Assembly: GCA_963759805.1 (NCBI GenBank)
Contig: CAVXAT010000002.1
Location: 64,001-128,000, forward strand
Source of the DNA: an uncultured bacterium
GTDB taxonomy: Bacteria; Babelota; Babeliae; Babelales; RVW-14
Reading direction: 5' to 3'
DNA length: 64,000 nucleotides
Shown in pieces: positions 36,967 to 64,000 of the stretch. Within the stretch, counting starts at the first letter, position 1. The number at the start of each line of letters is the position of its first letter. The notes below the pieces were generated by a model. It was not told the DNA's origin. It ran no database searches and saw only the letters and a program-made list of their open reading frames with translations. A program made the position numbers and the translations under genes.

Positions 36967-36985
36967 TTTTACTCAAAAAGCTTAT

Positions 36986-37840: not shown

Positions 37841-37848
37841 AATTTCTC

Positions 37849-39403: not shown

Positions 39404-39663
39404 TTTTCAAATTTGGATAAATTATTCTTAATCTTTTGGCTCAAAGTTTAAATTTTTCCCTTCATTACACGGTGAATTTATAAATTCAATGTACCTTATT
39501 CCAAGATCATATTTCTTATTTGCCTCTTGCATAAAGTTAAAAACTTTGAGGCTCGATGACACAAACGCATCGAATCCCTTAAACAATAAAAACTTCTCTT
39601 GAAAGAAAAATCCTAATAAATTATTATAAACGTATCAAAATAAAGTATCAAACGAAAGGGAGA

Positions 39664-40914: not shown

Positions 40915-40916
40915 TA

Positions 40917-43275: not shown

Positions 43276-43283
43276 AAATACTC

Positions 43284-44326: not shown

Positions 44327-44375
44327 GATTCAAACCTTTCTTATATTGCATTTTCATGTTTTTTCTGTAGCTCTT

Positions 44376-45278: not shown

Positions 45279-46074
45279 GAGGGAAACTTTCTAATAATAA
45301 CTTTAGATCAATAACAGGTTTGGATTCTCCTCCCATTTTGAGTGCTTCTTCCAAAGAATAAGCAATGTGGAAGTTTGTCCTACCAGTTCCATAATAATAA
45401 TCTTTATACTTTAAAATATTTTCTTTTTTGGTTATTCGAAGTAATCGTGCTGGTATGCCAAATGCCTCTGCAACAATGATGCCGTGCAAAGATCCTGTTA
45501 TTACAAATTTTGCTTTTAAAATTTTTTCAACAACGGTCATACAACCTTCCGTAGGAAGCACCAAGTTGGGAAACTTTTTAAATTCTTCTATCTCATTTAT
45601 ATTTGGGATAACAATATATTCCATAGTTGGATTCACTTTTAATTCTGGAAAAAGCAATGGCATTAGTAAAGCAGGATCGCCATAAATCTCGGGACATCTG
45701 ATGCCTTTTGATATTAAAAACTTTCTCGTCAAAGGTCCTCTAACAGATCGCACATCTAAACGGGTAAACTTATGGTTCTTGAGTGGAATTTTACCATTAA
45801 GGCCACTTCCCCAAATAACATCATTATCTTGCGCAAAATGTAAAATAGAACCTAATGCAAGCATTCGCTGGCTATAGTTTTTGTTCTCTATTAGAGGTTT
45901 TTTAATAATTCTTTCTATAATTTTTGGCGAAAGAGCGTCCCCAAAATTAGATGCAAATTTCGCAGGCTTAAAATAAACCAACGATACATTTTGCTCTGCT
46001 TTTAAGATATTAGCAGCTACATCTATTAGAAACACATGTAATAACGCTACTACAATGATAAAAAATCTATTCAT
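45265..46074 (-). CDS. Polysaccharide pyruvyltransferase (ExoV-like) with a signal peptide
   Basis: NFGDALS, VRGPLTR, GDPALL and SLHGIIVAEAFGIP. Confidence 0.85.
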   Translation of the reverse strand: MNRFFIIVVALLHVFLIDVAANILKAEQNVSLVYFKPAKFASNFGDALSPKIIERIIKKPLIENKNYSQRMLALGSILHFAQDNDVIWGSGLNGKIPLKNHKFTRLDVRSVRGPLTRKFLISKGIRCPEIYGDPALLMPLLFPELKVNPTMEYIVIPNINEIEEFKKFPNLVLPTEGCMTVVEKILKAKFVITGSLHGIIVAEAFGIPARLLRITKKENILKYKDYYYGTGRTNFHIAYSLEEALKMGGESKPVIDLKLLLESFPHDKF

Positions 46075-46083
46075 ATCTCTACT

Positions 46084-47383
46084 TTACTTTATTTTTTTAT
46101 CTTTTATAAACACTTTTTCTAAAAATACTTTTCTTCTGTTTTGTACAATCTTATAAATTTTTTTATATAAAGAAATTAAGCGGCTTAAACTAACATCTAT
46201 TGTACAATTTTCAGAAACAAAATCATATGCATTTTGCGCCAATAAATCTGCAAATTTTTTGTCATCAAGAAGCCTTTTTATTTGCATGGCCAAATCAATT
46301 TCATTATCAACGTCAAACAGTAAACCCGTCTTCTCATGTTGTATAATATAATCAGCCGGAAATCTGCCGCGCGAGACAAAATTATAGGGCACTTCATTAA
46401 TGCAGCTTCCATTAAAACTATACCAAACGCTTCCTTTTTGCTTGGTAAAACTCTGCATATCAGAAAAAAATAACAGTTCAGGGATTTTATCAGTAAAACC
46501 TAAAAAATTTACATACTCTTTTATTTCAAGTTTATTTGCTACAGCAGAAAGCTCCTCTATTCTTTTAGCAAAGCCACTTCCTGCAAATACAGCTTGAACT
46601 TCTATGTTGTGTTTTTTAATTAACTCATGCATTGCTTTTATTAATATTTCATGATTTTTATACTCATACAAATTTGCAACAACACATATAATTGGGCATG
46701 GTTTTATATTTAAATTAAAAGTTTTCTTAAAAAACTCTTTTCTTCTTTCTAAATACTGTTGAAAAATTTTCACAAGTGTTTCATCAAAAAATGGCGCCAA
46801 TAATTCAATAAATTTTATATTTCTACTTTCTTTCTTTTTTAACAAGACTAAATGAAACCGGACTAACAGCGATGAAACCCTCCATATTTCTGTATTTTGA
46901 AAGACCAGGCTGTATTGAATTATGATAATGAGCCACCATTCCTATCTTAAAAATATCACACACTTCACGAACAACCTCTAATTCATTAGATGCATTACAA
47001 TGAATTATATCAGGACAATCCTTATTGCAAAAATCAATAAGCGCTTCTTTCAAACATTTATAAAAAACATCAGGATCACTCGATTTAAACGTATGATACT
47101 TAAGATTTGTATTTTTTGCTTTAAGATAAGAATCGAAATGACCAGGAAGAAGAATATTGATTTTCATGCCGAACTCATTTAAATGAGCATACATATCCCA
47201 AGCACACTCTTGGACCCCACCCCAAAACTTATCTCCCAAAACTACTAATAAAATCTTCGGCCCCGACGATTTTGCTTTGTTACTTTTTTCGCAAGATAAA
47301 TATTCAAATATCCCGATAAAAGCACCCAATATTGCTATCATCAAAAAACTATAATTTCTAAATTTAAGCCTATTCACAATCAT
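46084..47383 (-). pseudogene. Glycosyltransferase family 4, frameshifted
   Basis: ORF 46823..47383 (WGGVQE, DIIHCN) and ORF 46084..46845 (YKNHEIL, FLGFTDKIPELL, TGLLF) together form one GT-B gene. Confidence 0.75.
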
Positions 47384-47407
47384 ATACTCTTTAGCGAGCT
47401 AAGTGTA

Positions 47408-48640
47408 TTAATAAATGTAATCACGATAAGAAACGTCCACTTTGTCAATCAGCAAGACTGATTCATTAATCCATCGAGCATGTTTAGGGAATATGATAAT
47501 CTTGTGATACCCTAAAAGAGATGCACACATAGAATAATTAGATTCTGGACGGATCAGACAATCAAACTGAAACATACCATAAAAGTCCTCTACGACATTA
47601 CAATCATCTGAATTACCTTCAGTTCTGCAACTCCAGATAATATTGGGGAGATTTACTCTTTTTTTAAATTCGTTCATAAGCGGAACAGTATCCTTCGTCA
47701 GTGAAAAGATGCACAAATAGAGGAATATTGCCAAGAAATTTCGACAGCCTTATTATTTGATCAACAAAATACTGTTTAGGTGGAACTTTAAGAGGATAGG
47801 CCTTATCAACCGGCATTTTTCTTGTTGGCATTATCAGCGGCATCTTCTTATCACCAAGATCTTCACTATTACAAGGATCTTTACTATTATAATATTGCTG
47901 TGAAACAGTTTTTGCATCAGTCCCAGACCTGCGCGAACATGAACAGCAACAGTAACAATATCACGAGGATTTTTAACAGCAATCTGATTTATGGGTTTTA
48001 ACATTTTCTTCAATTCTGAACCAAATGGTTCTTGTAATGATAAAAGGTACAGTTGCGAACCTGATAACCCCAAATGTCCGCATTTTTTGATATGTTGTTT
48101 TATCTTGATATCTTGTTTTTCAGATACTTTTTTGAGACCTTTTTTCCATAATTTAATGGTGGAACAATTTAACCTCGTTTTAAACTTGCATATAAACAAT
48201 GTAGGCATTTTTGCCTCTTTTAGAGCAGTAACCAGTTGACTTTCTTCCTCAATAATAATCCCTTGGGAATAGGGCTCATTGAATGGCATTTTTTCATTGA
48301 ATTTTGCACAAATTTAACCAATTCCTCACTCGCATGCTTTTCAGCATGAAACAGTTAATTCTTGTGAATATTTAAAGGGAATAAATAGAAATGGAAGTTT
48401 ATATTTATATGAAAGCCATTTTGTTTTACTATATCCACAAATTTGATCTCCAAATCGAGACCCAGTTGGATTATATGTTATAGCATGCTTGTATTTATAA
48501 TTTGGTTTATTATTTGAACATATCCCTGATGAATAAATAAAACAAAGAAACAATACTGCAATATGAGTATTTTTTTTTCGAATAAAAAAGCTAAGAAGAA
48601 TGCATAATAAATTTCCCATTTTTAACAGTATTTCAAACAT
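47408..48640 (-). pseudogene. Putative fucosyltransferase-like (GT11/GT-B) protein, split by frameshifts
   Basis: GSRFGDQI, VAVHVR.G and EDF..M..FDCLIR..SNYS spread over ORFs 48341, 47834 and 47408. Confidence 0.55.
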
Positions 48641-48641
48641 A

Positions 48642-49771
48642 TTAATTTATGTGATCGCTAACGCTGTCCATGTATTTGTAGAGCATTTTTTTGTTTATGG
48701 AAACCAATCTAATTGCTGAATCATTATCACCACCAACAATATGAAAAATCTTACACCCTCCTTCTTCACTCACAACAAAGCCGCATGGAAAGAACGATCT
48801 AACGTCCCTTTTGCTGTTGGCAAACCAAACGTTTTTGGATGGCTTATGCGTATAAAACTCTCGTGAAATAATAGGAAAACGTGAGATGCGCTTTATACTA
48901 AATGGAAATTTATTTTCGAACGTCATTGCACCAAAAACATAGATCCTATCGATACCTTGAGTGATACAACTATGAAAAAAAGTTAGATATTCATTATCCA
49001 CAAGGAGCGCTGCCTGTTCCTCCTCTTATTGTTCCCCATCTGTCTTCCCAACTTTCTCGCAAAAAATCTGAGTATTTATCGGTCTCAACAATTTTTTTCA
49101 ATGTATAAAAACGATCAAAGAGCAACAACGGTGTAAGGGGCAAACTGGTACACAAACCCAATGTTGTTATTAATGTTTTGATTATTGAAATTATCACTAC
49201 TATTTTCTGCAAAAGAAAATGCAGTCCAATTTTTCTCCCAAAAGACATAGGAGAAAAGCGCAAAATCTTCGTATTCTCTTTTTGAGGAATTAGCTTTTTA
49301 CCATGATTAAGCAAATCGCCAAGTCTACTTATACCAAACGAAAATGTAAAAGATTTTTTTCCTTTTTTCATAACATCTTCCAAAAATGTATATGTTAGAT
49401 ATATATCATTATTGCAAGTAAAAAGCCTGGCATCTCTTGCTCCTTTTATTCTTTTATCCAACAAAGACAAATCTAGAAACATAGATGAGCCTTGTTGCTG
49501 AAAATTTTGATCAAATATTGCCAACCCCAATTCCACCTTTCCATGTGGCCTGTTATTACGGAATGACAATAAAAATTCATCACTATATTTAATGATGGAT
49601 GCATTGCATGGACTAGTAATACCGGAGACCTCAATAACCTTAGTATTTTTTATAACTCCAATATCCTCGGCATAGGGAACATTAATAAAGTGCTTTTCGA
49701 ATTTTTTGATATGAAAAGAGTAAGCCGAAACAAAAAGTAGGGAAAAAAACAAAATAAAAAATTGACTTCAC
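48642..49771 (-). pseudogene. Beta-propeller glycosidase-like protein, frameshifted; paralog of 43284-44326
   Basis: NASII, RDARL, WGTIRGGT, YLTFFHS and FFPCG; GTG start near 49771 with a signal-like N-terminus. Confidence 0.6.
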
Positions 49772-49839
49772 GTTCAATAACTCCCTTCAAAAAATCAATT
49801 CTACTTTTAAAATTATTTATTCAAAAAATACCATTATAA

Positions 49840-51518
49840 TTACAATTTACCATACCTTGGCATATTACGAATATATTTATCTAATGAAATCTGAAGATCA
49901 GTGTTTGTTTTAATATCATTCCATGGTGTGTCAAAATTATAAACATGCAAAACATCTTCAATAAACATAAATCTATTACCGGCCATTTCAAGCATTGGAA
50001 ACATGATAGCCAAATCACCCGTCATAGACATAAACGCACCTTCAAACAACAAGTCTTCTCGTTTAATTTTTTTGTACAACCAAGTATAAAATGTTCTTAA
50101 ATGCGATGTAATCCACCTGTAATTTCTATAATCCCGATTTGATATGATATCATCCGGAAATTTTTGGCAAAGGCCACTGACACCCTTAGGAAATCTAATA
50201 TACTGCCCATAGGTAAGCCAAATATTTGGATCATCATAAACTTTATTTAATAAGTCGAGAACATGGTCATGCGCAAGCCAATCATCTCCATCAAGAATTA
50301 TAATTATATCTTTATCGTCACACATATGAATTGCGCGATAAATATTGGCAACAGCCCCAAGTCTCTCTGTATTCTTAATTAACAAAATTTTATTTTCTAA
50401 CTTTCGTTCTTTAATGTACTGTTCAACTAGGTTTCCAGTTCCATCAGGAGAGACATCATCTGTATAAATAACATGATAATTTTTATATTTTTGAGAAATT
50501 ACTGAGTCTAAATTTGACTTATACCACTGCTTATTATTGTAGGAGGCAATGACAAAAACAAAATGTTTATCTTCTTGTGTCTTCTTATTTTTCAATTTTT
50601 CCCACAACGGTCCCTTCTCATTGGCTCTTGGAACAAAAGAGACTTCATATGAGATATTGGACGATTTATTATTCATCCCATAAAACGTATTTATATTAAT
50701 CTTAAACCCTGAATTAAAAATACGTAAAAGCTTATTTTCTAAAAAATCTTTGATAGTCTCATCTTCTTTTAACTTATTTTGAAGAATAAGAGGGGTCAGC
50801 ATTATTGCTTTAGATTTACAAAAACACGCCATACTTAAATTTTTATTGATATGCTGTGACCATGCAGCCTTAAAATCTTTTGTTGGTTTAGAATTCAACC
50901 CACGCAAAAGAGTGTCTAAGATTATTTTTCTTTCATAAACAACCATGTCAACCAACTTGGCAAATGAACCCTTCACAAAATCCTGTATCTTCCAAGACAG
51001 AACATTTTCACCAATCTGTTTTATTTTTTTAGAAAGAATTAAAGAATCTTTTGTAATATTTTCCCCAAGACTCAAACAAAGGCCGAAAACATCAGATTCT
51101 TTGAAAGCACAAGCACAATCTCCAAAATTAACACGCTCTTTTACAATAATGCCATCAACTGTAAGAGCAACATATTTAGTCTTTATGTGCTTTATTAAAA
51201 GAGAACAAAGGACAGACTTTAAATTTGAATTTTTCACGTCTCCTACATACCTAATCATTGCCACACCGAGAAATTCTTGGCTTATATTTTCATAAGCCTT
51301 TTCAAATTTATCATCACTAGCTGAATAAAGAACAAAAATCTTATTGTATCCATTAACATACAACTTAATAGATTCCAGACATGCATACAATTTTATAGGA
51401 CAGTTGTTTGAGATCACAATTATATCGACATCATTTGTTTTTGATTTTTTTCTTGCTCACCGGAGCAATCCACAAAACTCAAAAAAATTATTACCCAAAG
51501 CAAATGAACGCTCTTCAT
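49840..51518 (-). CDS. Two-domain glycosyltransferase (GT-A-like N-domain paralogous to 56499..57440, plus a C-terminal GT2); 5' frameshift near 51450
   Basis: LYACLESIK shared with 56499..57440; C-terminal FVIASYNN, DDVSPDGTG and LDGDDWLA; upstream ATG 51518 encodes MKSVHLLWVIIFLSF out of frame. Confidence 0.75.
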
Positions 51519-51541
51519 AAATCAACTCTCCAAATCCAATA

Positions 51542-52834
51542 TCAATTACTTAACATAAAAACACGATTATAAAGATCAATGTACAAATCTAAGACGCAGC
51601 TTTTTGAAAAATTATTCATAACATGGTTAAACGCTGAATTACCAAACTTACCTCTTAATTCTGTAGACTGAACCAATGTTTTAATCTTTAATGAGATATT
51701 TTCGAATATTTTAGGATCACATAACAGGCCTGATTCATTGTCTTTTATAACCAAGCCGGCAGCTCCGGCATTTTTCGATAAAATAATGGCTTTGTGCATA
51801 AAAGCAGCCTCTAAAATTGTAATAGAAAAAGCTTCTCCAATGCTAGGCAAAATAACAATATCAGAATGAAACATAAGGCTTGGAATATCGTTAACAAAAC
51901 CCAAAAAATGAACAAAATCATTTAAACCTAAATCAGAACAAAGTTTTTTTAACTCTTTATCCCTTGATTGCGTGGAAGCATTTCCCGCTAAAACACATTG
52001 AACTTTAATATTTTCTTTGTAAATAAGGTTATGCAAGGCATGCAAAAGCCCTTCATGATTCTTGCATTTATAAAAATTTGCAACCATAGATACCAAAGGG
52101 GAATCATTTAATTTTATTCCAAAATTTGTCTTGAAAAATAACTCTTTTGACAATGTAGGAACAAAGTTTAAAAATTTATCATCATTACAGATCGGTGGTA
52201 TAAATTCTATAGTTCCTACATCTAGTTTTTCATTTTTTCTTTTTTTATTCAAAATATTACAAATATCAGGACTTGCTAAAACTAATACATCTGCTCCGTT
52301 ATAACATTTAGCAGGTGGAACCTTATAATAATGATACTGCTGAATAACTTTTAAATTCAAAGTTTTCGCAACCTTTTTTGCCACATCAAATTCAAAAGAT
52401 ACCCCATGAGTATGAATAATCTTAATATTTAAATCTTTACAAATTTGATGAGTTGCAAAATAAAACAGATTAAATTTGTCTTTTGCAGAGATATTATCGT
52501 TATATGAAATAACATAATGCGGCAATTTTTCATCCACTAATCGCTGCTGTAAACTAGTCCCTTTCAACACAGCCAGATGCACATTAAACCCTTTTTCCAA
52601 TAAGCCTTTATAAAGGCTTAAAACGTGGTGCTGAACGCCACTTTCAGCAGGATGAAATCTAACAATCAGAACGGCAGGCTTATTCTTGGACAAAATTAAT
52701 TTTTCTTTATGATCAAAATTTATAAATTCAAAATCAGAACTCTTTGCTGGAAGGTCTTTGGCATGAATATTATATGAAAATATTGTTGATTGCAAAAATA
52801 GGAACATCGATATAAAAAGTATATTTCTTTTCAT
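51542..52834 (-). CDS. Glycosyltransferase family 4 with a signal peptide
   Basis: MKRNILFISMFLFLQSTIFS; ILPSIGEAFSITILEA. Confidence 0.88.
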   Translation of the reverse strand: MKRNILFISMFLFLQSTIFSYNIHAKDLPAKSSDFEFINFDHKEKLILSKNKPAVLIVRFHPAESGVQHHVLSLYKGLLEKGFNVHLAVLKGTSLQQRLVDEKLPHYVISYNDNISAKDKFNLFYFATHQICKDLNIKIIHTHGVSFEFDVAKKVAKTLNLKVIQQYHYYKVPPAKCYNGADVLVLASPDICNILNKKRKNEKLDVGTIEFIPPICNDDKFLNFVPTLSKELFFKTNFGIKLNDSPLVSMVANFYKCKNHEGLLHALHNLIYKENIKVQCVLAGNASTQSRDKELKKLCSDLGLNDFVHFLGFVNDIPSLMFHSDIVILPSIGEAFSITILEAAFMHKAIILSKNAGAAGLVIKDNESGLLCDPKIFENISLKIKTLVQSTELRGKFGNSAFNHVMNNFSKSCVLDLYIDLYNRVFMLSN

Positions 52835-53131
52835 TACATACCCTCTAATCACAAAGATTTCGCCTCGTAAATACCCTTTTTTTATTAGCATAAATTTATC
52901 AGTGCAAAAACATTAAGTAAACAATTTTTTATTGAGTTAAATTTGACTTCGTCATGGCTATCACTTATGTATAAACGCCCAAACCAATTTGCAAAATACA
53001 AGTTAATACGCAATTATCATACTTTAATCTTAGTTTATTGCTATTAGCCATATTTCTTTGATAAAAGTAAATCAATGTTGCATTCATTGGTTTAAAGTTT
53101 TTATCAAAAAGGAACTTATGAGGAGAAAAAA

Positions 53132-54157
53132 ATGAAAATTTTACAAATTTTATTACTTAGTGGCTGTTTTATTGCCCAAGTTAACCTATGTAACAATATT
53201 CAGGCACAAGTTAAGTCTGATAAACATGTTATAGGAGCTAGAAAATGTGGATTTTTTTCTGAATTTTTAGGAGTACTTGCACACATTGCATGGTGCGAGG
53301 AAGCTGGAAAAAAACCGGTTGTATTTTGGGATAAAAAATTTGTTTATTATGAACCGGATGGTTGGAATAATATACAAAATGCATGGGAGTACTATTTTGA
53401 GCCTATTTGCAATGCTAAATATGAACCAACTGACATTGTTGATTACAAATTTCAAGCCCCAAATGGATTTTTTTTCCCATGGAGCGATTTTCGTAATATA
53501 GAGATAATGCGACCTCTGGCACACAGTATCATCAAAAAATATATAAAAATAAAGCCCTATGTTTTGGATATAGTGGACGATTTTCATAAAAAAACTATGA
53601 AAAATTGCATCACAATTGGAATCCATTTGAGAGGCACAAACAAAGGAACTGAAGCTAAAACTGAAATAAACCCTGCAAACCTTATTAAAAAGGCACAAGA
53701 GTATGCCTACCTGGCCGCATCAACAGGAAAAAATGTAAAATATTTGGTGGCATCTGATGAACAAAAGTTGATTGATTTTGCAAAAAAAGAATTGACTCGG
53801 CAGAGTGATGATACTGTACATGGAGAAGTTATAAGCTATACAGCAGAAAGATCAAAGGGAACGGAGACAAATTATTATACTTTCTTGGGCACGAAAAAAG
53901 AGAATGGCTTTTTTGCTAAACGAGGCCTGGACGTTTTAGTTGAAGTTTTATTACTTTCACAATGTTCATATTTTGTTCATACGAGATCAAACGTTTCGAC
54001 AGCAGTAATTTTCTTTAATCCGAATTTAATCCATTATCAATTTGATGGATTTGCAAAAATGCAAGAACAAGTCAAAACAAAGCCGACAACAACCAAACCT
54101 GCTGCAACCAAACCAACAACAAAGCCGGCGAATTTAAAAATTAAGAATAAAAAGTAG
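53132..54157 (+). CDS. NodZ-like/GT23 fucosyltransferase with a signal peptide
   Basis: GFFSEF, NAWEYYFEP, IGIHLRGTNK, VASDE and LLLSQC..FVHTRSNVS; lies immediately upstream of fcl-gmd. Confidence 0.7.
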   Translation: MKILQILLLSGCFIAQVNLCNNIQAQVKSDKHVIGARKCGFFSEFLGVLAHIAWCEEAGKKPVVFWDKKFVYYEPDGWNNIQNAWEYYFEPICNAKYEPTDIVDYKFQAPNGFFFPWSDFRNIEIMRPLAHSIIKKYIKIKPYVLDIVDDFHKKTMKNCITIGIHLRGTNKGTEAKTEINPANLIKKAQEYAYLAASTGKNVKYLVASDEQKLIDFAKKELTRQSDDTVHGEVISYTAERSKGTETNYYTFLGTKKENGFFAKRGLDVLVEVLLLSQCSYFVHTRSNVSTAVIFFNPNLIHYQFDGFAKMQEQVKTKPTTTKPAATKPTTKPANLKIKNKK

Positions 54158-54214
54158 ATAAACAATTAGGAGTAATACAAAAAATAGTTGGTAATTATCA
54201 GGGGAGGGGGACTT

Positions 54215-55237
54215 ATGGACATTAGATACATTTACTCAATAATTTTAGGCATCTTCGTATTTACAATTCCAATGTTTGGTGCAATTCCCAAAAACGCTAA
54301 AATTTATGTTTCCGGACACCGTGGCCTTGTGGGGTCTGCACTAGTAAACAAATTACGCACCGATGGATACACAAACATTCTTCTAAGAACATCTAAGGAA
54401 CTTGATTTGCGCAATCAAGCCGCAGTAGAAGCATTTTTCGCCAAAGAACAACCTGAATATGTTTTTCACATTGCTGCAAAAGTCGGCGGAATTAATGCTA
54501 ATTTGCTAGCTCCAGCCGATTTTATACGTGATAACCTACAAATTATCACAAACGTCATAGATTCTGCACAAAAATATGGAACAAAAAAGCTTGTTTACAT
54601 AGGATCTTCCTGTATTTATCCTCGCATTTGTCCACAACCGATCAAGGAAGAATATTTACTGTCCGCATCGCTTGAACCATCTAATGAAGCGTATGCTGTA
54701 GCAAAAATTGCAGGGATCAAATTATGTCAGGCTTTTAATCATCAATATGGAACAACATTCGTTTCATGCATGTTGCCAAATATGTACGGCCCGGGTGATA
54801 ACTTTAATTTAAAAACAAGTCACGTCCTACCCGCAATACTTGTAAAAATTTATCAAGCGAAAAAGGAAGGTCATAAATCGGCTCCCATCTGGGGAACAGG
54901 TAAAGCAATCAGAGAATTTTTGTATAACGACGACCTTGCTGACGCACTCATGTTTTTAATGGAAAATTACAATGACAACGAAATCATAAATATTGGCACA
55001 GGCGAACCTGTTTCAATTCTCGAACTTGCCAACTTAATTAAAAAGGTGGTTGGATATGAGGGTACACTTGTTTTTGATCCAACCAAGCCGGAGGGCACAC
55101 CATGCAAGGTTATGGATGTAACACGCATTCATGCTCTTGGATGGTATGCAAAAAATACGCTTGAAGAAGGCATTCGTAAAACATTAAAGTGGTATGAAGC
55201 TAATCTTGAAGAGGGCATTCGTAAAAACATTAAATAA
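54215..55237 (+). CDS. fcl: GDP-L-fucose synthase with a hydrophobic N-terminal extension
   Basis: GHRGLVGSA, AAKVGGI, GSSCIYP, YAVAK and WGTGKAIREFL. Confidence 0.93.
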   Translation: MDIRYIYSIILGIFVFTIPMFGAIPKNAKIYVSGHRGLVGSALVNKLRTDGYTNILLRTSKELDLRNQAAVEAFFAKEQPEYVFHIAAKVGGINANLLAPADFIRDNLQIITNVIDSAQKYGTKKLVYIGSSCIYPRICPQPIKEEYLLSASLEPSNEAYAVAKIAGIKLCQAFNHQYGTTFVSCMLPNMYGPGDNFNLKTSHVLPAILVKIYQAKKEGHKSAPIWGTGKAIREFLYNDDLADALMFLMENYNDNEIINIGTGEPVSILELANLIKKVVGYEGTLVFDPTKPEGTPCKVMDVTRIHALGWYAKNTLEEGIRKTLKWYEANLEEGIRKNIK

Positions 55238-55264
55238 GGACTTATTTACAATAGGGGGGAGAGG

Positions 55265-56413
55265 ATGATGTTATCTAAATATTATTTATTTTTAGTGTAT
55301 ATTTTAGCATCAATTTTTTTTATAAATACACAGGCATTGGATAATCAAGCAATAGAGCCCAAAAAGGCTCTGATCATTGGAATAACAGGACAAGACGGTA
55401 CTTATCTTTCTGAATTTTTACTGGGCAAAGGATATTGCGTTCATGGCATGGTTCGCAGATCATCGTCAACCAATACAGGAAGGATAGACCATTTATGCCA
55501 AAATCAAGAGCTGCAAGCCAAAAAACTTTTCACCTTGCACTATGGTGACATTACTGATGCCAGTAACGTACTCAGCATAGTTCAAGCAGTTCAGCCTGAT
55601 GAAATATACAATCTTGCAGCTCAAAGCCATGTACAAATATCATTCGAAATGCCAATTTACACTGCGCAAGTTGATGGACTGGGAACATTAAACATTTTAG
55701 AGGCCATTCGATGCGCCGGTTTGACAAAAAAAACAAAATTTTATCAAGCATCAACAAGTGAACTGTTCGGCAAAGTACAGGAGATACCACAAAAGGAAAC
55801 AACCCCATTTTATCCACGTTCTCCATATGCTGCGGCCAAGCTATTCAGTTACTGGATTTCTATAAACTATCGTGAAGCCTATGGCATATTTGCTTGCAAT
55901 GGAATACTGTTTAACCATGAATCACCAATTCGCGGTGAAAACTTTGTTACCAAGAAAATTACACACGCAGCGGTCAGGATAAAATATGGATTGCAAGATG
56001 TTTTATCGTTAGGAAATCTAGATTCCAAGAGAGATTGGGGCCATGCACGAGATTATGTTGAAGCCATGTGGCTTATCTTGCAACAGCCTCAACCTGATGA
56101 TTTTGTCATAGCTACAGGAGAGACGCATTCTGTAAGAGAATTTGTTGATCTTACTTTCAAAGAAATTGGCATTGATATTGAATGGACGGGCCAGGGATTA
56201 GATGAAAAAGGCATTGATAAAAATACCGGCAAAACACTTGTCGTAGTTGATAAAAAATTTTTCCGACCAACAGAAGTTGATTTTTTACTTGGTGATCCAA
56301 CTAAAGCCAAAAATGTACTTGGCTGGAAACCACGCATTACATTTAAAAAACTAGTAAGCGAAATGATAGAAAGCGAATTAAAAGGCATGAACAGTTGGAG
56401 AGCCGCTAAGTAA
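55265..56413 (+). CDS. gmd: GDP-mannose 4,6-dehydratase with a signal-peptide-like extension
   Basis: [37 protein letters not shown] and RDWGHA. Confidence 0.95.
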
Positions 56414-56498
56414 TCAAGCACGCTCACTCTGCGCTTTTTTTGCAACGAATAAATCTTTGTCGCATAAAAAACATATTATATCATTTCCATAATTTACT

Positions 56499-57440
56499 TT
56501 ATCTTAAAATGAATGTCGGTTCGTATGGCATATGAGGTGATTTATTTTCAATTTTATACAAAGGCTTGATATCAATTTTATATCCTCCATTAAATACATC
56601 TAACATTTTATCTGCAGAAAAACCTTCCATATGCAAATTACTGTAATCAGTTTGACTATTTAATGGGATATTAATTATCTTGGATTTTTTAAAACAAAGA
56701 CCTGTCCATTCCAGATTTACTTTTTTAGCCCAAGCACTCTCCAACCTGTTGGGAGAATAATAATTTAACTGACTGAAATTTTCTGCTATATCAGCTTTTC
56801 TATAAACGGTCATATCGACAGTATTTGGATAGCTCCAATCGCCACCTGTTCCGTCTTTAAATTTCCAAGCAATAATCCCATTTTCATATTCTTTAAAATT
56901 GGGCAATCTTGGATTTTTAAATGGAATAGTGTAATTTTCGGTTGTATTTTTGCCTAGCCTTAGATAAAAGCCGTAAGAATCATGTTTTTCGAGAGCATTT
57001 GCGCAAGCGTTCAAGTCAATTCGATCTTTAACAATTATATCATCTACAACAAATGCAATGTACTTGCTTTTGGATTTTTTTAAAAAAATATCAAGAAGTA
57101 GTGGCTTAAAATGCTCCCTCGGCTTATTTGAATCCTGAATATACATTTTAACATTAGGGAAATTTTTATTTACCAATTCATATGCTTTTTTAAATTTTTC
57201 GTCACTTACTCGATAAAGAACAAAAATATTCTGATCCCCTGTTACATAAGATTTTATTGATTCAAGACATGCATATAATTGCAATGGCCGATCATAAGAA
57301 AAAACTATTAAATCTACACTAAGATCAGAATTTACACTCTTTTTTAAACTTTGTTCTTTAGCAATAACAGTATGAAATCCAAATAAAAATACACCAAAGA
57401 CAAAGCAACTTAATACACACAGCTTGCTAGACATACACAT
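56499..57440 (-). CDS. Putative GT-A glycosyltransferase-like protein with a signal peptide
   Basis: IVFSYDRPLQLYACLESI and FVVDD; paralog of the N-domain of 49840..51518. Confidence 0.6.
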   Translation of the reverse strand: MCMSSKLCVLSCFVFGVFLFGFHTVIAKEQSLKKSVNSDLSVDLIVFSYDRPLQLYACLESIKSYVTGDQNIFVLYRVSDEKFKKAYELVNKNFPNVKMYIQDSNKPREHFKPLLLDIFLKKSKSKYIAFVVDDIIVKDRIDLNACANALEKHDSYGFYLRLGKNTTENYTIPFKNPRLPNFKEYENGIIAWKFKDGTGGDWSYPNTVDMTVYRKADIAENFSQLNYYSPNRLESAWAKKVNLEWTGLCFKKSKIINIPLNSQTDYSNLHMEGFSADKMLDVFNGGYKIDIKPLYKIENKSPHMPYEPTFILR

Positions 57441-57492
57441 TCCAACTCGTCAAGAAAATTAATAAGATATTCATTATTCAAATACCACTAAT

Positions 57493-58386
57493 TTATCCAA
57501 GATATGAATGACAAGATACATAATGATACCCTTTATTCTTAAACAATTCCAAATTTTGCAACTTAGTATTAATCCATTTTAGTTTTCTGATTTCACATTG
57601 ATTTGTTCTTAGGAGCGTAAAATTGAAATAAAGTTCATACTCTGAAGCACATGCCCCTTCAACATCGTTTAAATCAATACAATTGCAAAAGGCTTCCCAA
57701 AAACTTATTTTAAATTTTTTTTCTACTATTAAAAACATATCCTCCAAAATACAACGCTGCACAAGCATATGATGTGAAATTCCAGAGTATTCTGAGAATA
57801 CTCTTTTAAATCCGGGTATTAATTTTTGCCCATGATTAAAATATGGAGGATGAAACTCTTTTCCGGGATTGAAAAAACCTGCCCCTGTATTCTTATCACA
57901 AAACATTACAGGATTTAAAAAAATAGTATCTGCATCAAGAAGAAGAATATTTGAAGAGATATTTGGAATAACAAAAGGGGAATAGAGTTTTAATAGTTGC
58001 TGATAAATCCATCCAATTCGATCTAATTTGTAATTTTCGTCTTTAAAAAGTTGCCTAAGTAGATCCTTTTTAGAAAATGGAAATTTTGCCTCATCAAACC
58101 ATTCAGCCTTGGCGGTTAATTTTTCCGGTGAAATAACAATAACACGTCTGATATTTGAAGCGTTTTTCTTGATGCCTTCTATGCACATATCCAGTGTTCT
58201 AGCATCCTTGACTATGCATACAATTACGACGTCAATGGGGTCTTTATTAAATTTGTAAGCAACTTTTTGTATTGGTAAATAAGGGGGATTTTGTGTAAGA
58301 GCTTGAGTTTTATTTTTCGCAAAGCTACTAGCAAAACTAAACAACAAAAACCATATGTATGCAAAAAAAACAGTGTTTTTTTTCAT
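57493..58386 (-). CDS. Nucleotide-diphospho-sugar transferase-like protein (DUF6492-like) with a signal peptide
   Basis: MKKNTVFFAYIWFLLFSFASSFA; GWIYQQLLKL, LDADT, ISHHM and SEYELY. Confidence 0.65.
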   Translation of the reverse strand: MKKNTVFFAYIWFLLFSFASSFAKNKTQALTQNPPYLPIQKVAYKFNKDPIDVVIVCIVKDARTLDMCIEGIKKNASNIRRVIVISPEKLTAKAEWFDEAKFPFSKKDLLRQLFKDENYKLDRIGWIYQQLLKLYSPFVIPNISSNILLLDADTIFLNPVMFCDKNTGAGFFNPGKEFHPPYFNHGQKLIPGFKRVFSEYSGISHHMLVQRCILEDMFLIVEKKFKISFWEAFCNCIDLNDVEGACASEYELYFNFTLLRTNQCEIRKLKWINTKLQNLELFKNKGYHYVSCHSYLG

Positions 58387-59184
58387 CACTCTATCCTTAT
58401 CGAAAAAGACCCCGTCCAAAAAACAATTTATCAATGCCAAAATATTAAGTAAACAAAAATTATAAAATATAACCAAGCAAAAAACATAAAAATCAATATA
58501 TAAATTCTCTTGACTTTTATATTTAAAATCATAAATAATTATCCTATTGATCAAAGAAATTAGAGAAAAGGATATGAGTGAGAAACAAATACTTCCTTAA
58601 ACAATTTGCTATATTTTTTTTAATTCCATTAGCAACACAGTCAATGACAGCAACAAATACAAATAATATGGTAATAAATACCAAATTAATTCAATTTAAT
58701 GAATCAATAGACAATGCATATAATGCATCCATAATTGAGTATGGCAGTGGGTACCTTTTAATTTTTCGACATGACACTGAAAATAAATTATGTGCATGTG
58801 GGTACAAACAACCACAAATTAAAATGGTGTGCCTAAATAAAAATTTCGAACAAGTAACTCCTATTAAAAATGTTGAAATTAAAAAAGCAACCTCAAAAAC
58901 AAATTTGACAGAGAAGCTTATTCCATTTACACCAGAAGATGCACGAATACACTCTTGTCGTAGACAGTTGTTTTTAACTTATAATAGCGATGTTGATGTA
59001 CATCAACATACTACGAAGAGTAAAACTCCATGGAGAAGACAGATGTTTAAAGGGAAATTCGACCCCAAAAAAGCTTACCTTTCAGATATTGAACAAATTC
59101 CATCAAATAATATTCCATTAACACTTGTTGAAAAAAATTGGACCCCATTTGAATATCCTGAAGGATCCGGGGGGCTTTATTATA

Positions 59185-60186
59185 ACGCCAGTTCGATAAT
59201 TAGTTAAGGCTTGGAATTTCAGCAAAAAACCCCACACCTATCGCAGGTTTGTGTTGATGAAAAGAATAGGCTGAAATTGCAGCAAAAACATTCGTGAAAA
59301 AATTTTTAACACATCTATGTCTAGTATGTTCGATTTTAAAGGTATTTTTCAGGATATTGTTAACAGATTCAATGATGTTTCGTTTTTTTAGAAAAAGTTT
59401 TTCAAAAAAGATCATGAGCTTGTTTTTCATACCCTTTTTAAGCTTTGTTATAAGCTTGAGACCACGCCTAAAAAGTTTTTCAAAAAGAGGTTGTGATATA
59501 TAACCACGATCGCCAAAAAGCCAACCCCAAAGATTTTTTGTAACTTTAGAAATAACTGATTCGTTACGGTCATCAGTATTTCCTGGGGTAATCCAAAATG
59601 ACAAAATTTCACCGAAATGATTAATCACAAGATGGAGTTTGAACCCATAAAACCAGCCCATTGATGATTTTCCGCGCTGAGCAATACCCTTAAAAACTTT
59701 GTGTGAGTAAATTCGAAGATTGTGGCACACAACCAATTTTGTGGAATCAATAAAGGCAATACCGCGCATATTTTTACTGTTGCGACTTGCAGCAAATAAT
59801 GCCAATGGCTCTGCAGCCTCATGCATTAACTCAGTAAAGCGAGTGTAGCTAACCAAAGCCCCAAAGGCTGTTTTCAATTCTTTGCAAACATGGTCTTTGT
59901 AATATCTTTTGAATGTGTGATATCCAGAATAATGAAAATATACGCAAATCGTAAGAATATCGCTTAGAGTCATGCCTCGTGGGCGTCCTGCAGCATTTAA
60001 CGTGTTATTCTTTACTCTCTTTTCTTTAACATATTTTTCATATTGCTTGCAAAAATCATCAATTTCGCAAAAAATAGTTGTTAAGAACATGTTTAGCCTT
60101 TCTCTTTTTTTTTGAGGGTTTCATTTTTCTCAATTTAAACGAGAAAGGCTTTTTTTAAAGAACTTTTTTAATTATCGAACTGGCGT
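59185..60186 (-). mobile_element. IS982-family insertion sequence (1002 bp)
   Basis: Perfect 18-bp inverted repeats ACGCCAGTTCGATAATTA; 7-bp target duplication TATTATA at 59178-59184 and 60187-60193. Confidence 0.93.
59200..60090 (-). CDS. IS982-family DDE transposase
   Basis: IDDFC, SYTRF, FIDST, GWFYGFKLHL, GDRGYIS and R.IIESVN..LK...IEHTRHR. Confidence 0.93.
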   Translation of the reverse strand: MFLTTIFCEIDDFCKQYEKYVKEKRVKNNTLNAAGRPRGMTLSDILTICVYFHYSGYHTFKRYYKDHVCKELKTAFGALVSYTRFTELMHEAAEPLALFAASRNSKNMRGIAFIDSTKLVVCHNLRIYSHKVFKGIAQRGKSSMGWFYGFKLHLVINHFGEILSFWITPGNTDDRNESVISKVTKNLWGWLFGDRGYISQPLFEKLFRRGLKLITKLKKGMKNKLMIFFEKLFLKKRNIIESVNNILKNTFKIEHTRHRCVKNFFTNVFAAISAYSFHQHKPAIGVGFFAEIPSLN

Positions 60187-60688
60187 TATTATATATACAT
60201 GACATGCCCTCATATAATTATAGATCTATCTAAATCATGTAAAATAATAAAAAATGAATTAAATTTAAAAACTTTATGGGACAGTGAAATATTTGGAAAC
60301 ATTAGAGGTGGAACACCAGCTCGGTTGGTTGATGGAGTTTATCTCACATTTTTTCATTCATGGAAATTTCATACAAAAACAAAAGAATATCGATACTTCA
60401 TGGGAGCATATATTTTTGAAGCAGCCCCACCATTCAAAATTCTCGCTATTACGCCAGAACCAATTAAAAATGACGAATTATGTACAGCCAAACACAGAGT
60501 TAAAAATTTACATGTTATATTTCCTGGTGGATTTGTTGTAGAAAAGAAAGATAGGCAAACTTTATTGCATGTTGCTTGTGGAGAAAATGATTCATCAATT
60601 CGCATCATTTCAATAGATAAAGATAAATTGTGGGAAAATATGAAAAAATGTTTTTCATAAAAGTATATTATTTAAAAAAAGGGTAAAA

Positions 60689-61600
60689 ATGACAATAAAA
60701 AATTGTTTCCTTGCACCTATTCTCTTGCAAACGTTGGTTTCAATTCAAATAAATGCTAGCTCAAAAAAAATTGTACCTCCAAAAGCAGTAGAAGCCAAAC
60801 AAGAAGCCAAAAAACCTGATACAAGCAACATTTTTGACCTTAAAAATTTTGAACGCCTAGCAAACATAACGATATCTTCTGATATAAAAAAATATTATTC
60901 AGATATAGATAAAGTTGATGGATGGTTTGATAAAAGACATATTATAATACTCCTCTTAATAAATTTATTTCAAACAAAAAATAGCATTAATGGAAATTTG
61001 GGTGAAATTGGTGTTTGGCAAGGCAAATCTTTTATTCCATTAATGCTACTTGCTAAAAACAATGAATATGCTGCTGCTATAGACTGCTTTGAATCATACG
61101 AATTCAATCGCGACAATTCCGGAGGAGGTTCTTGTAGCTTCGAAATTTTTAATAAAAATGTAGAAAAGTATTGTTCAAAACATAGTAATCTTAGAGTTAT
61201 AAAAGGTGATTCCTCTAGCTTTTCAGCAAAAGATTATCTCAGTGTAATGGAAAATGGGAAAGGCTTTAGAATATTTAGCATTGATGGTTGCCATGAAGCT
61301 CCCTCTACCATTAAAGACATGGAAAATGCATTTAACTGCCTGGCTGATGGAGGCGTTATAATCATTGATGACTATTTTCACACTTGTTGGCCAGGAGTTT
61401 CTGAAGGCCTTAATTTTTTTATGAATAAAAATGTTAATTGTTTGAAACCATTTTTAATTGCATGGAACAAAATATTTTTTGCACAACCAGCCTTTGCAAA
61501 AAAATATTTTGACTTGATTAAAGAATTTTTGATTCCCAATGATGTAAGAATAAAAAAATTCTTTGGCGTAGACACGTTAATATATGATAAGCAAGGATAA
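60689..61600 (+). CDS. Class I SAM-dependent methyltransferase (Methyltransf_24-like) with a signal peptide
   Basis: GEIGVWQGKS, SIDGCH, GGVIIIDDY and WPGV. Confidence 0.8.
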   Translation: MTIKNCFLAPILLQTLVSIQINASSKKIVPPKAVEAKQEAKKPDTSNIFDLKNFERLANITISSDIKKYYSDIDKVDGWFDKRHIIILLLINLFQTKNSINGNLGEIGVWQGKSFIPLMLLAKNNEYAAAIDCFESYEFNRDNSGGGSCSFEIFNKNVEKYCSKHSNLRVIKGDSSSFSAKDYLSVMENGKGFRIFSIDGCHEAPSTIKDMENAFNCLADGGVIIIDDYFHTCWPGVSEGLNFFMNKNVNCLKPFLIAWNKIFFAQPAFAKKYFDLIKEFLIPNDVRIKKFFGVDTLIYDKQG

Positions 61601-61605
61601 TAAAA

Positions 61606-62532
61606 ATGAATTATAAAATACTTTTTTTATTTTTTTCACTAAGCATTAATCCCATATCAGCTAACGTTGAAACCCATCTAAAAAAAATAGTCGGAAAATC
61701 TGGAAATCACAAAATAAAAAATATAGATTTTATCTACATGATAAATTTGGATAAACGACCAGAAAAATTTGCCCGTTGCAAAGAACAACTATCTAAGTAC
61801 AATATTGAGCCATTTAGATTTTCTGCAGTTAATGGATGGGAATTACCAATGGAAACCATTAACGATGTTGGCGTAAAATACGAAACATGGATGGCGAAAG
61901 ATCTATGGGGAACTTATTATTCACCAGATAAAGGAGAGTTTCAGCATGAAATTATGAACGTCAAAGGAAGAACTTATTTCTGTCATTGTACGGTTCGCGG
62001 GCCAATTGGAATAAACCTAAGTCATCTTTCGATTCTTAAAGATGCATTGGATTCAAAATATAATACGATATGGGTAATGGAAGATGATATTCAGATTATT
62101 AAGGATCCACATAAAATTTCATCTTTAATTGATAAATTAGATAATCTTGTAGGTAAAAAAGGATGGGATATACTGTTTACAGACAAGGATGCAAAGGATC
62201 GAAATGGAAACTATGTTGTATGTTTAAGTTATGCCAAAAGACCAAACTTTTCCCCTTTGCATCCTGAACGATTTGCGGTAAGAAAACAAATTGATTCTGA
62301 TTTTATAAAAATTGGAGCACGTTATGGAGCACATTCAATGATAATTAGGAAGTCTGGAATACAAAAGCTTTTAAAATTTTTTTGTAAGTATTCCCTATTT
62401 CTTCCATATGATATGGATTTTACTATGCCTGACGACATACACTTGTATACCGTTACAGATGATATTGTATCAAACCAGCCTGGAGCACTTTCAGACAACG
62501 GATCTCCAGGATATTTGAAAAAAGAAAAATAA
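61606..62532 (+). CDS. Glycosyltransferase family 25 with a signal peptide
   Basis: MNYKILFLFFSLSINPISA; YMINLDKRPEK, RFSAVNG, LSH and VMEDD. Confidence 0.8.
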   Translation: MNYKILFLFFSLSINPISANVETHLKKIVGKSGNHKIKNIDFIYMINLDKRPEKFARCKEQLSKYNIEPFRFSAVNGWELPMETINDVGVKYETWMAKDLWGTYYSPDKGEFQHEIMNVKGRTYFCHCTVRGPIGINLSHLSILKDALDSKYNTIWVMEDDIQIIKDPHKISSLIDKLDNLVGKKGWDILFTDKDAKDRNGNYVVCLSYAKRPNFSPLHPERFAVRKQIDSDFIKIGARYGAHSMIIRKSGIQKLLKFFCKYSLFLPYDMDFTMPDDIHLYTVTDDIVSNQPGALSDNGSPGYLKKEK

Positions 62533-62577
62533 TTACTAAATAATTCTGGTATTTTTATCAAAAAAAAAGCGTTAGTT

Positions 62578-63627
62578 ATGCATATAAAAATATTTTTTAT
62601 ATGTGGCTTGTTATTCTACGTAAATTTGTCAGCCACTACCAAAAAAATAATTTACTTAGTTCCACCTTATTCTTCAGGAAAAGAGAATCTACTTTTTAAT
62701 CCAAATGAAAGGGATGACTGCAATAAGCCATTTATCGAATTAAGAAATGCAGCAGAAAAACTTGGTCATTCTTTAAAAGTAACAAAAGACATTACAAACT
62801 CAACCAATGTAGCCGCCATTGTCGTTATTACAACAAAACATTTAAATCCTGAATTTTTCAGGCAACTAGAAAAATACCCTTTAGAAAAACGTATTCTTTT
62901 TTTATACGAATCTCCATTGCTTGAGGGATGGGCGCATATTCCAGATATTACAAAGCATTTTGGAAAAACGTTTACCATGCTTGATAATTTTGTTGATAAC
63001 AAAACTTATTTTAAATTCTACATGCCACAACCATACCTAAGTATGCTTAAAAATATTCCAGATTTTGCTAAAAAGAAATTTTGTACATTAATCGCAGGAA
63101 ACAAAAACTGGAACAACGAGAAAAACCGTAACGAATTGTACTCTGAACGTAAAAAGACAATAAAATTCTTTGAATCTCTTCACCAAAATGAATTTGACTT
63201 ATATGGCATAGGCTGGAATACAAAAGAATACCCATCTTATAAGGGGAATATTACAAATAAAGCACAAATTCTGCAACAATACAAATTTTGCATCTGCTAT
63301 GAAAATATTCAAAACGTTTTTGGATATGTTTCTGAAAAGATTTTCGATTGCATGGCGGCAGGATGTGTTCCTGTTTATTGGGGAGCATCAAACATCCCAG
63401 ATTATGTTCCTGCTAACTGTTTTATTGACCGCCGTAAATTTAAGTCGCATGACGATTTATATCTATTTTTAAAAAGCATGGATAAGAAGACATATAACAA
63501 ATATCTAGAAAACATAAAAAGGTTCTTTAATTCTTCGCAGGCATCAAACTTTTCAATAGATAATTTCATAAAAATATTTTTTGCTGCAATCGATAGCTCC
63601 AAACAACAAGATCCTGGAAATGAATAA
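62578..63627 (+). CDS. Glycosyltransferase family 10 (alpha-1,3/4-fucosyltransferase-like) with a signal peptide
   Basis: YKFCICYEN....GYVSEKIFD...AGCVPVYWGA is the GT10 motif; N-terminus MHIKIFFICGLLFYVNLSA. Confidence 0.85.
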   Translation: MHIKIFFICGLLFYVNLSATTKKIIYLVPPYSSGKENLLFNPNERDDCNKPFIELRNAAEKLGHSLKVTKDITNSTNVAAIVVITTKHLNPEFFRQLEKYPLEKRILFLYESPLLEGWAHIPDITKHFGKTFTMLDNFVDNKTYFKFYMPQPYLSMLKNIPDFAKKKFCTLIAGNKNWNNEKNRNELYSERKKTIKFFESLHQNEFDLYGIGWNTKEYPSYKGNITNKAQILQQYKFCICYENIQNVFGYVSEKIFDCMAAGCVPVYWGASNIPDYVPANCFIDRRKFKSHDDLYLFLKSMDKKTYNKYLENIKRFFNSSQASNFSIDNFIKIFFAAIDSSKQQDPGNE

Positions 63628-63802
63628 ATAACAGCCCTTAATCCTGCAGCGAGCCCCTTTATCACGAAAAATTTTTAGCGGGAATTGCTTTTAATCCTGA
63701 GCATACTCTTTTGATTATTCCAAATATCTGTACATCCAAATTAATTTTCGTATAAGTTGTTATGTAGAGAAAGTGCAATCATTCTTTTATTAAGGGGGGA
63801 AT

Positions 63803-64000
63803 ATGAAGTTAGGATATCTGCTTGTAATTTTATTATTAACTTTTACAACTAAAACATTATATTGTACAAATAATCACTCTCTAAAAACACATCCACAAAT
63901 CTCTCGAAAGTTTAAACTGTTGACAACGCTTTACAATGAAAAAAACGAAAAAAGATTTTTAGAATTCGTAACATGTATTGAAAATAATTTAAAAAATACA
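63803..64000 (+). CDS. Partial gene running off the window, with a signal peptide
   Basis: ATG after AAGGGGG; open for 66 codons: MKLGYLLVILLLTFTTKTLYC...LLTTLYNEKNEKRFLEFVTCIENN. Confidence 0.65.
   Translation, partial: MKLGYLLVILLLTFTTKTLYCTNNHSLKTHPQISRKFKLLTTLYNEKNEKRFLEFVTCIENNLKNT

Follow-up and report, generated by a model that had tools for sequence, protein, structure and literature searches.

The window analysed here, a 64,000-nucleotide stretch of contig CAVXAT010000002.1 (forward-strand positions 64,001 to 128,000) in GenBank assembly GCA_963759805.1 of an uncultured bacterium, includes an adjacent pair of genes for the synthesis of GDP-L-fucose, fcl and gmd, both of which encode proteins with a signal-peptide-like leader. 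The fcl gene (54215..55237, forward strand) encodes a GDP-L-fucose synthase (Fcl/GMER) of 340 amino acids (aa), and gmd (55265..56413, forward strand) a GDP-mannose 4,6-dehydratase (Gmd) of 382 aa. The genome (1.50 Mb, 21 contigs, 88.7% completeness) is assigned to Babelota (Dependentiae/TM6), because the named homologs of Gmd and of two neighbouring gene products belong to Dependentiae, Babeliales or TM6.

Both enzymes have intact catalytic motifs. Gmd matches TIGR01472 at 582 bits (cut-off 415) and aligns with a Gmd chain in the PDB at E 2e-151, with the glycine-rich NADP, S/T-S-E and YxxxK motifs aligned and matching. Fcl matches NF047922 at 431 bits (E 2e-129), which is below the 500-bit equivalog cut-off for what is by far its top family, and E. 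coli GDP-fucose synthetase (1bsv) at E 8.5e-91, with identical S-S-C, YxxxK and His motifs. These motifs we take to have the catalytic and cofactor-binding roles usually given to them. The first residues covered by the family matches are 27 in Fcl and 33 in Gmd, and alignments with the solved Gmd and Fcl chains start close to these points. Canonical Gmd and Fcl are soluble, cytoplasmic NADP(H)-dependent enzymes that begin within a few residues of the glycine-rich motif. The window Gmd, unlike them, has 32 residues ahead of its family match, the leader included.

The Fcl leader (codons 1-22; 54215..54280, forward strand) has a 14-residue hydrophobic core and a c-region ending in P-M-F-G, and the Gmd leader (codons 1-24; 55265..55336, forward strand) has a Lys in the n-region, a 15-residue core and a T-Q-A c-region. 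Both thus show a short n-region, a core of 14–15 residues and a polar end. Cleavage is predicted, from sites read by eye, at G22/A23 in Fcl and A24/L25 in Gmd. With n-region charges of +1 for Gmd and 0 for Fcl and h-scores of 2.6 and 2.9, respectively, the leaders resemble a Sec/signal peptidase I signal peptide, which is expected to have a positive n-region and a hydrophobic h-region of 7–15 residues.

Translation from the first ATG of each gene is well supported. Scoring for Shine-Dalgarno (SD) complementarity bore out the strong G-rich ribosome-binding sites proposed before. That of fcl (54199..54214, forward strand) has an SD length of 5 and 9 G among the 10 positions −14 to −5, and that of gmd (55249..55264, forward strand) lies inside the 27-bp gap after fcl, the two Gmd ATGs having 6 and 8 G in the same ten positions. 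Initiation at the Met of P-M-F-G in Fcl, the downstream start considered in the preliminary description, is unlikely because this ATG (codon 20) has an SD score of 0; it also has no G at −14 to −5. At the position where most relatives keep the ancestral Met, the window Fcl has Ile. In Gmd, as already noted, no further Met occurs between the leader and the Rossmann motif. It also has no SD-backed start there, since GTG at codon 11 and TTG at codon 25, the sole other in-frame starts ahead of the catalytic domain, both have an SD score of 0 and no G. A scan for promoters and terminators gave signals at or under the shuffled background and was uninformative.

The search for second copies lacking the extension, as suggested earlier, was successful. 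Another contig (C8) carries a gmd-fcl pair that is leaderless, starts at the canonical position and shares 57% (Gmd) and 50–61% (Fcl) identity with the window pair. It is surrounded by genes for leaderless enzymes and an ABC exporter. A leaderless manC (C11:114041-115072) and two leaderless PGM/PMM genes are also present in the genome. The statement that the window has no manB or manC is correct, according to both the lists of open reading frames (ORFs) and the genome profile searches, but it fails as an argument, since manC and both PGM/PMM genes are found elsewhere. For this genome, the derivation of host GDP-mannose from a missing manC was therefore rejected. A search with PF01050 (mannose-6-phosphate isomerase type 2) gave only weak cupin-like matches, none of them in this genome, and was not used. 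The C8 Fcl has about 108 extra residues (about 62780-63070) that correspond to a dispersed repeat inserted in frame within coding genes. The repeat is present at 34 distinct loci in the genome, 21 of them inside ORFs of ≥200 aa, and occurs also at window positions 23508-23583, inside an mnmA-like ORF (23385-24665), and at C11 95261-96391. Such an in-frame dispersed repeat recalls the Rickettsia palindromic elements.

The leader trait is real and lineage-wide in Babelota. Leaders were called by a rule of our own, a rough hydropathy and charge heuristic rather than a standard signal-peptide predictor, which asks for an uncharged 9-residue window with mean hydropathy ≥2.0 near an upstream start and a non-negative n-region. 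Of the 261 genomes of the phylum, 144 yielded a Gmd, and N-termini were read for 134 copies from 110 of them. The rule flags 72 of these 134 Gmd and 35 of 72 Babelota Fcl, and none of the Gmd (0/72) or Fcl (0/47) from other prokaryotes, the viral Gmd (0/80) or the Babelota CysS (0/30). On intergenic frames of this genome it fires in 103 of 3420 cases (3.0%). Eight loci, seven of them with leaders, were moved out of the outgroup as Babelota-like after inspection of their N-termini; four are named Dependentiae/TM6, and the four unnamed ones are placed among Babelota in the tree but would make the outgroup figure 4/76 if counted there. Three Fcl copies without the anchor motif were dropped, two of which are from Babelota and have leaders by eye. 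Leader-bearing Gmd are spread over 7 families and ~50 genera, and in 60 of 69 adjacent gmd/fcl pairs both genes have the same leader state. The catalytic motifs are kept in 68–72 of the 72 leader-bearing Gmd and in 34–35 of the 35 leader-bearing Fcl, and 30 of 38 leader-bearing Gmd that are the sole copy have no ATG within 11 codons of the motif. Leaderless proteins in this genome include EF-Tu, two tRNA synthetases, GroEL, DnaK, GyrB, GlyA and FtsZ, as labelled from sequence motifs.

In a quick IQ-TREE tree of 152 Gmd rows with SH-aLRT support, which was rooted on one outgroup row and is weak in its deep branching, the window Gmd falls within a clade of 60 tips, 58 of them leader-bearing (SH-aLRT 91; FastTree support for the large leader clade is only 0.37). 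Genomes G132 and G135 each have sister leader-bearing and leaderless Gmd paralogs (SH-aLRT 95 and 99) inside an otherwise canonical clade that also contains the C8 Gmd. Leader state changes at least 13 times on the tree, and leaders have therefore been gained, and lost, more than once.

The presence of manC (TIGR01479) was compared with the leader state of Gmd in 97 genomes that are ≥88% complete, with five borderline calls corrected by hand and seven genomes with an unseen second Gmd copy (six with manC, one without) excluded from the contrast. Genomes with a leaderless Gmd have manC in 50 of 51 cases; the exception is a leader-bearing GT2-Gmd fusion, whose removal gives 50/50. When only leader-bearing Gmd are present, manC is missing from 19 of 39 genomes, seven of them single-contig, or from 20 of 40 with the fusion genome. 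The 21 genomes without manC come from 15 genera and 5 families. A hidden eukaryote-type GDP-mannose pyrophosphorylase was not found in them, all 40 PF00483 nucleotidyltransferase matches being GalU- or GlmU-like. As these genomes have an intact Gmd and no detectable GDP-mannose synthesis, their GDP-mannose would come from the host.

Leaders are not special to Gmd and Fcl but extend to most genes of the surrounding cluster and to MetK, Adk, Ndk and a TrxB-thioredoxin fusion. The sole S-adenosylmethionine (SAM) synthetase of this genome (MetK, C1:309763-311001) carries a signal-peptide-like leader and lacks an internal Met. The sole Adk (C6:3979-4764) has a lipoprotein-like leader and an internal SD-backed Met, and adk is missing between secY and map. 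The sole Ndk (C5:10255-10758) has an N-terminal anchor, the TrxB-thioredoxin fusion (C9:52662-54194) has a leader ending in Cys and adjoins a leaderless paralog, and the sole cytidine deaminase (C8:115365-115916) is leader-bearing. Only 20 of the 261 genomes of the phylum yielded MetK, which bears a leader in 14 of the 17 copies that could be read; since it is absent from the other 241, it is dispensable inside the cell. The leader-bearing MetK is matched by leader-bearing methyltransferases. Leaders were also seen on a histone-deacetylase-domain protein (C10:12203-13330), two dual-specificity phosphatases (C11:18220-18762 and C10:26028-26663) and a Memo-AMMECR1 fusion (C8:79573-81237), which are candidate host-directed effectors.

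Internal starts follow a pattern across such enzymes. Among enzymes still required in the cytoplasm, leader-bearing main copies keep an internal SD-backed ATG in Adk (4/4), GlmU (4/4) and GalU (4/4), and extra paralogs mostly do not (Adk 0/2, GlmU-like 0/1, GalU-like 0/2, one more being ambiguous), in a small sample taken from loci fetched for other purposes. Such a pattern would follow if a leader caused its protein to leave the cytoplasm. The window Fcl, which has a cytoplasmic paralog and has lost the ancestral Met, matches the expectation. In GlmU (L466, L467, L475, L477) and GalU (L446-L448, L455), the leader lies ahead of an intact old start. The old ribosome-binding site is there read in frame as K-G or E-G, which suggests that two isoforms may be made from one gene.

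The fcl and gmd genes are preceded on the same strand by a gene for a leader-bearing NodZ/FUT8-type (GT23-like) fucosyltransferase (fucT; 53132..54157, forward strand), the first of the run fucT-fcl-gmd, 57 bp ahead of fcl. As a single sequence, FucT gave no match in Pfam or the PDB. Many of its homologs match PF05830 (NodZ) or PF19745, and its alignment profile (A2) matches NodZ (2hhc, E 2e-17) and FUT8 structures (E 2e-9), with invariant H165 and R167 (H-x-R). The leader rule flags 105 of its best 120 homologs. FucT is the likely user of the GDP-fucose. A second candidate user is the leader-bearing GT10 fucosyltransferase-family protein encoded at 62578..63627 (forward strand; PF00852, E 1e-15). 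Downstream of gmd, on the reverse strand, lies the gene for a leader-bearing protein of a large family (56499..57440) that is also found fused to GT2 domains. This protein has no Pfam or PDB sequence match, and its family profile (A1) no PDB match. Its 607 homologs, when named, are from Dependentiae/Babeliales and in one case Chlamydiae, and 107 of the best 120 are flagged. It is probably a glycosyltransferase. The homolog named Chlamydiae (P0102) has an N-terminal hydrophobic segment, a hint that the system may be shared with chlamydiae.

These genes belong to a glycan cluster of ~33 kb (33433..64000 and ~2.5 kb past the window end) with a GC content of 30–35% against ~37%. It includes genes for four GT2 and four GT4 proteins (one of the latter frameshifted), GT10, GT25, two NodZ-like proteins, two pyruvyltransferases, a methyltransferase, a frameshifted Ugd and unnamed proteins. 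The two polysaccharide pyruvyltransferase-family genes (PF04230; 44376..46074, reverse strand) and the methyltransferase (PF13578) and GT25 genes (60689..62532, forward strand) all encode leaders. The rule flags 24 of the 31 cluster ORFs of ≥140 aa, with one false positive. Of the seven that it does not flag, three are pieces of frameshifted genes, one is a near miss, one has an uncertain start, and the other two encode a transposase and a GTPase. The cluster has no recognised flippase, polymerase or priming transferase, and PF02397 (priming transferase) had no match in the 89%-complete genome. At 59200-60090 an insertion sequence transposase (PF13612), of which near-identical copies lie on contig C1, interrupts a leader-bearing gene, the two parts of which lie at 58578-59207 and 60199-60660. 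Further genes, among them Ugd and one GT4, are frameshifted or fragmented (40982-42101, 46084-47383 and 47400-48640), which suggests partial decay of the cluster or assembly errors. Window positions 43284-43940 gave nothing significant against the PDB. Just outside the cluster is a NurA-like ORF by eye (32087-33421) with an inserted stretch. At C4:89559-93465 there is another small group of genes for glycan enzymes with leaders, GT34 and DUF6492 domains among them, and in genome G177 (C2, about 19000-21000) a leader-bearing GT2-type domain is fused in frame to Gmd.

The leaders are variable in sequence and constant in build. Mean identity is 21% between leaders and 67% between enzyme cores, the hydrophobic runs are mostly 10–18 residues, and the mean n-region charge is +1.8. 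Neither a twin-arginine motif nor a lipobox was found in any of 107 Gmd and Fcl leaders, and export of these enzymes by the twin-arginine translocation (Tat) or lipoprotein routes was rejected. TatC was not found in the 89%-complete genome, and for this reason the Sec rather than the Tat route is considered. A similar leader build is seen on proteins of this genome that must be exported, namely its two Omp85 proteins, OmpH and a rotamase. The P-x-[FY]-G ending of the Fcl leader recurs in an Omp85 protein and in MetK, and a tally of the residues before the old Met in 27 Fcl gave no clean A-x-A. DsbB was not found in this genome, and cysteine counts, considered as a sign of an oxidising compartment, show no clear shift (2.1 versus 2.6 in Gmd, 5.8 versus 4.5 in Fcl). 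The genome also has three secretins, two T2SSF/PilC genes, 12 nucleotide-translocase (TLC)-family match segments and an EamA transporter.

Export is the likely mechanism to which the leader-bearing Gmd and Fcl point. We hold with moderate confidence that they belong to a Sec-exported fucosylation pathway that would draw GDP-mannose and NADPH from the host and run in the periplasm or further out. The leaders would act as cleavable Sec signal peptides, and Gmd and Fcl, exported unfolded, would fold and take up NADP(H) outside the cytoplasm, where they would turn host-derived GDP-mannose into GDP-L-fucose at the expense of host NADPH. The GDP-fucose would be used by the co-exported NodZ-type and GT10 transferases, and the product would likely be a fucosylated, pyruvylated and methylated glycan on the parasite surface, its replication body or host acceptors. 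The leaderless C8 pair and manC would form an ordinary cytoplasmic pathway beside the ABC exporter. The earlier proposal that GDP-fucose is made outside the cytoplasm from host GDP-mannose thus retains part of its basis, in that manC is lost only where all Gmd copies bear leaders and the fucosyltransferase has one too; what it drew from the window does not hold, this genome having manC. As to the compartment, a periplasm or cell surface fed through an outer membrane poor in lipopolysaccharide (LPS) is a tentative choice, and since Adk, Ndk and TrxB are lipoprotein-like or anchored, host nucleotides may reach it. The host cytosol or vacuole, reached by type II secretion, is a somewhat unlikely site, though release there is possible because secretin and platform genes are present.

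Several observations weigh against the exported pathway. The stretch between the hydrophobic core and the Rossmann motif carries a net positive charge (mean +1.4); positive charge after the core hinders Sec export in E. coli and makes the topology ambiguous. Both enzymes bind a cofactor, form oligomers and normally fold inside the cytoplasm. An exported source of NADPH was rejected, the G6PD of this genome being leaderless, and NADPH (744 Da) is above the usual porin limit. The ATG near the old start is retained in 34 of 35 leader-bearing Fcl, though with a weak SD (mean score 1.8 versus 3.5), and 9 of 69 adjacent gmd/fcl pairs are discordant. Leaders occur on 354 of 1260 crude ORF calls genome-wide (~28%), a rate that makes the prior high. 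This genome itself has manC. The genomes in the manC contrast are related (15 genera, 5 families) and are not 40 independent tests, and genome G235 combines a leaderless Gmd with a leader-bearing ManC for which no clear internal start lies nearby, a mismatch seen less clearly in G258, G259, G216 and G212.

Some of these points would be explained if the leaders were uncleaved inner-membrane tethers, or export-incompetent, and held the enzymes in a cytoplasmic, membrane-bound glycan complex supplied with GDP-mannose through nucleotide translocases. The charge after the core, the cofactor-binding and oligomeric nature of the enzymes, the cytoplasmic G6PD and mosaic genomes such as G235 all suit this explanation, and the 12 TLC-family segments and the EamA transporter, which could import nucleotide sugars and SAM, would account for the loss of manC and so count against export. 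It is nevertheless unlikely: the positive n-regions predict an N-in/C-out orientation, the hydrophobic runs are mostly too short for a membrane span, the c-regions resemble those of Omp85 and OmpH, and the cluster, unlike the C8 locus, has no flippase or exporter. Moreover, a tether facing the cytoplasm needs no internal starts, yet the sole Adk, GlmU and GalU keep them. A further reading, far less likely still than the tether, is that an AT-rich genome full of signal peptides has acquired the leaders as neutral N-terminal accretions and that translation truly starts further down. The high background of leaders, their unconserved sequences and the old ATG kept in many Fcl would favour it. Neither window gene has an SD-backed internal start, most sole leader-bearing Gmd have no ATG near the motif, and the 3% null rate, the unflagged CysS, the concordance of gmd and fcl and the association with manC loss all speak against it.

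Alternatively, Gmd and Fcl could be secreted as metabolic effectors against the host, draining its GDP-mannose or raising its GDP-fucose and refucosylating host proteins, with no parasite glycan made. Type II secretion genes, the many leader-bearing effector-like enzymes (such as those with histone-deacetylase and dual-specificity-phosphatase domains), the eukaryote-type families GT23, GT10 and GT34 and the precedent in the available text on Chlamydia (PMC4829429) lend this some colour. Against it, the pyruvyl- and methyltransferases together with GT2, GT4 and GT25 are the make-up of a structural-glycan locus, like the giant-virus fibril clusters in the accessible part of PMC10117803, and the lipoprotein-like or membrane-anchored Adk, TrxB-thioredoxin and Ndk point to cell-bound action; we regard it as improbable. 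A wider form of the exported pathway, to which we would give rather less than an even chance, is a whole second metabolism outside the Babelota cytoplasm, fed by host metabolites and resembling a Golgi-like or virus-factory-like glycosylation compartment. Exported ManC, GalU, Gmd, Fcl, SAM synthetase, nucleotide kinases and an NADPH-dependent thioredoxin system would there supply dozens of exported glycosyl-, methyl- and pyruvyltransferases, and the system would have been built repeatedly by the addition of a signal peptide ahead of an intact gene start.

The accepted view is that bacteria make and use nucleotide sugars in the cytoplasm, as neither these sugars nor GTP and NADPH get to the periplasm. 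If the exported pathway is real, the Babelota, parasites of protists that place donor synthesis, transferases and SAM synthesis outside their own cytoplasm, break this cytoplasm-only rule, part of the unexplained 28–44% signal-peptide proteome of Babelota acquires a function, and there is convergence with giant viruses that infect the same hosts. The claim is directly testable, and the manC-loss and dual-start patterns yield sharp predictions.

Compared with canonical bacterial Gmd-Fcl (TIGR01472, NF047922; 1db3, 1bsv), of which the C8 pair is an ordinary member, the Babelota enzymes have the same folds, catalytic motifs and gene adjacency but carry export-type leaders, often in genomes without manC. 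Unlike lipid-linked loci of the Wzx/Wzy or ABC type, the cluster has no recognised flippase, polymerase, priming transferase or ABC exporter. Eukaryotic Golgi-lumenal enzymes such as UDP-xylose synthase are nucleotide-sugar enzymes of the short-chain dehydrogenase/reductase fold that work beside transferases across a membrane. Eukaryotic Gmd and Fcl are cytosolic. In contrast to the Golgi-lumenal enzymes, Fcl consumes NADPH, and an outside supply would be needed in Babelota. In full-text literature, which leaves subscription journals mostly uncovered, no signal-peptide-bearing Gmd or Fcl and no exported glycan pathway in Babelota was found, and export-tagged Gmd/Fcl in this phylum are apparently undescribed in print.

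The intracellular lifestyle of Babelota is confirmed, as far as the available text of PMC12172432 goes. According to the parts at hand of the respective reports, Chromulinavorax (C. destructans) grows in the host cytoplasm and has signal peptides on 44% of its coding sequences (PMC6561590), with which the ~28% leader rate of this genome is in line, and B. massiliensis grows in one vacuole, type II secretion being the only system detected (PMC4378268). Babeliales lack most LPS genes, in the accessible portions of PMC6561590, PMC4378268 and PMC4776705. The same three sources, so far as available, describe for the same phylum a signal-peptide-rich Dependentiae secretome, for which Sec and type II secretion are proposed, and cover ankyrin proteins, proteases, nucleases and ORFans; the words fucose, glycosyltransferase and glycosyl have no matches in their main texts.

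Parallels are also found in other intracellular agents. In Chlamydia trachomatis, glycogen enzymes are type-III-secreted into the inclusion (Gehre et al. 2016, PMC4829429, in the text available), so that there, as proposed for Babelota, normally cytoplasmic carbohydrate enzymes of an intracellular bacterium act outside its cytoplasm on a host nucleotide sugar. The Chlamydia system involves type III secretion, a storage polymer and UDP-glucose, whereas that predicted for Babelota would involve Sec-type leaders, NADPH-requiring donor synthesis and a fucosylated heteroglycan. In the available sections of PMC9614988 and PMC10117803, chlorovirus PBCV-1 makes GDP-fucose from host GDP-mannose with its GMD (A118R) and GMER (A295L), and giant-virus clusters, such as those of Megavirinae, likewise mix nucleotide-sugar enzymes with glycosyl-, pyruvyl- and methyltransferases. 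The NodZ-like neighbour in the window also has look-alikes in viral clusters. The viral GMD and GMER, however, are made on host ribosomes and need no leader (0/80 viral Gmd flagged), whereas Babelota, as a two-membrane cell, would have to export the enzymes.

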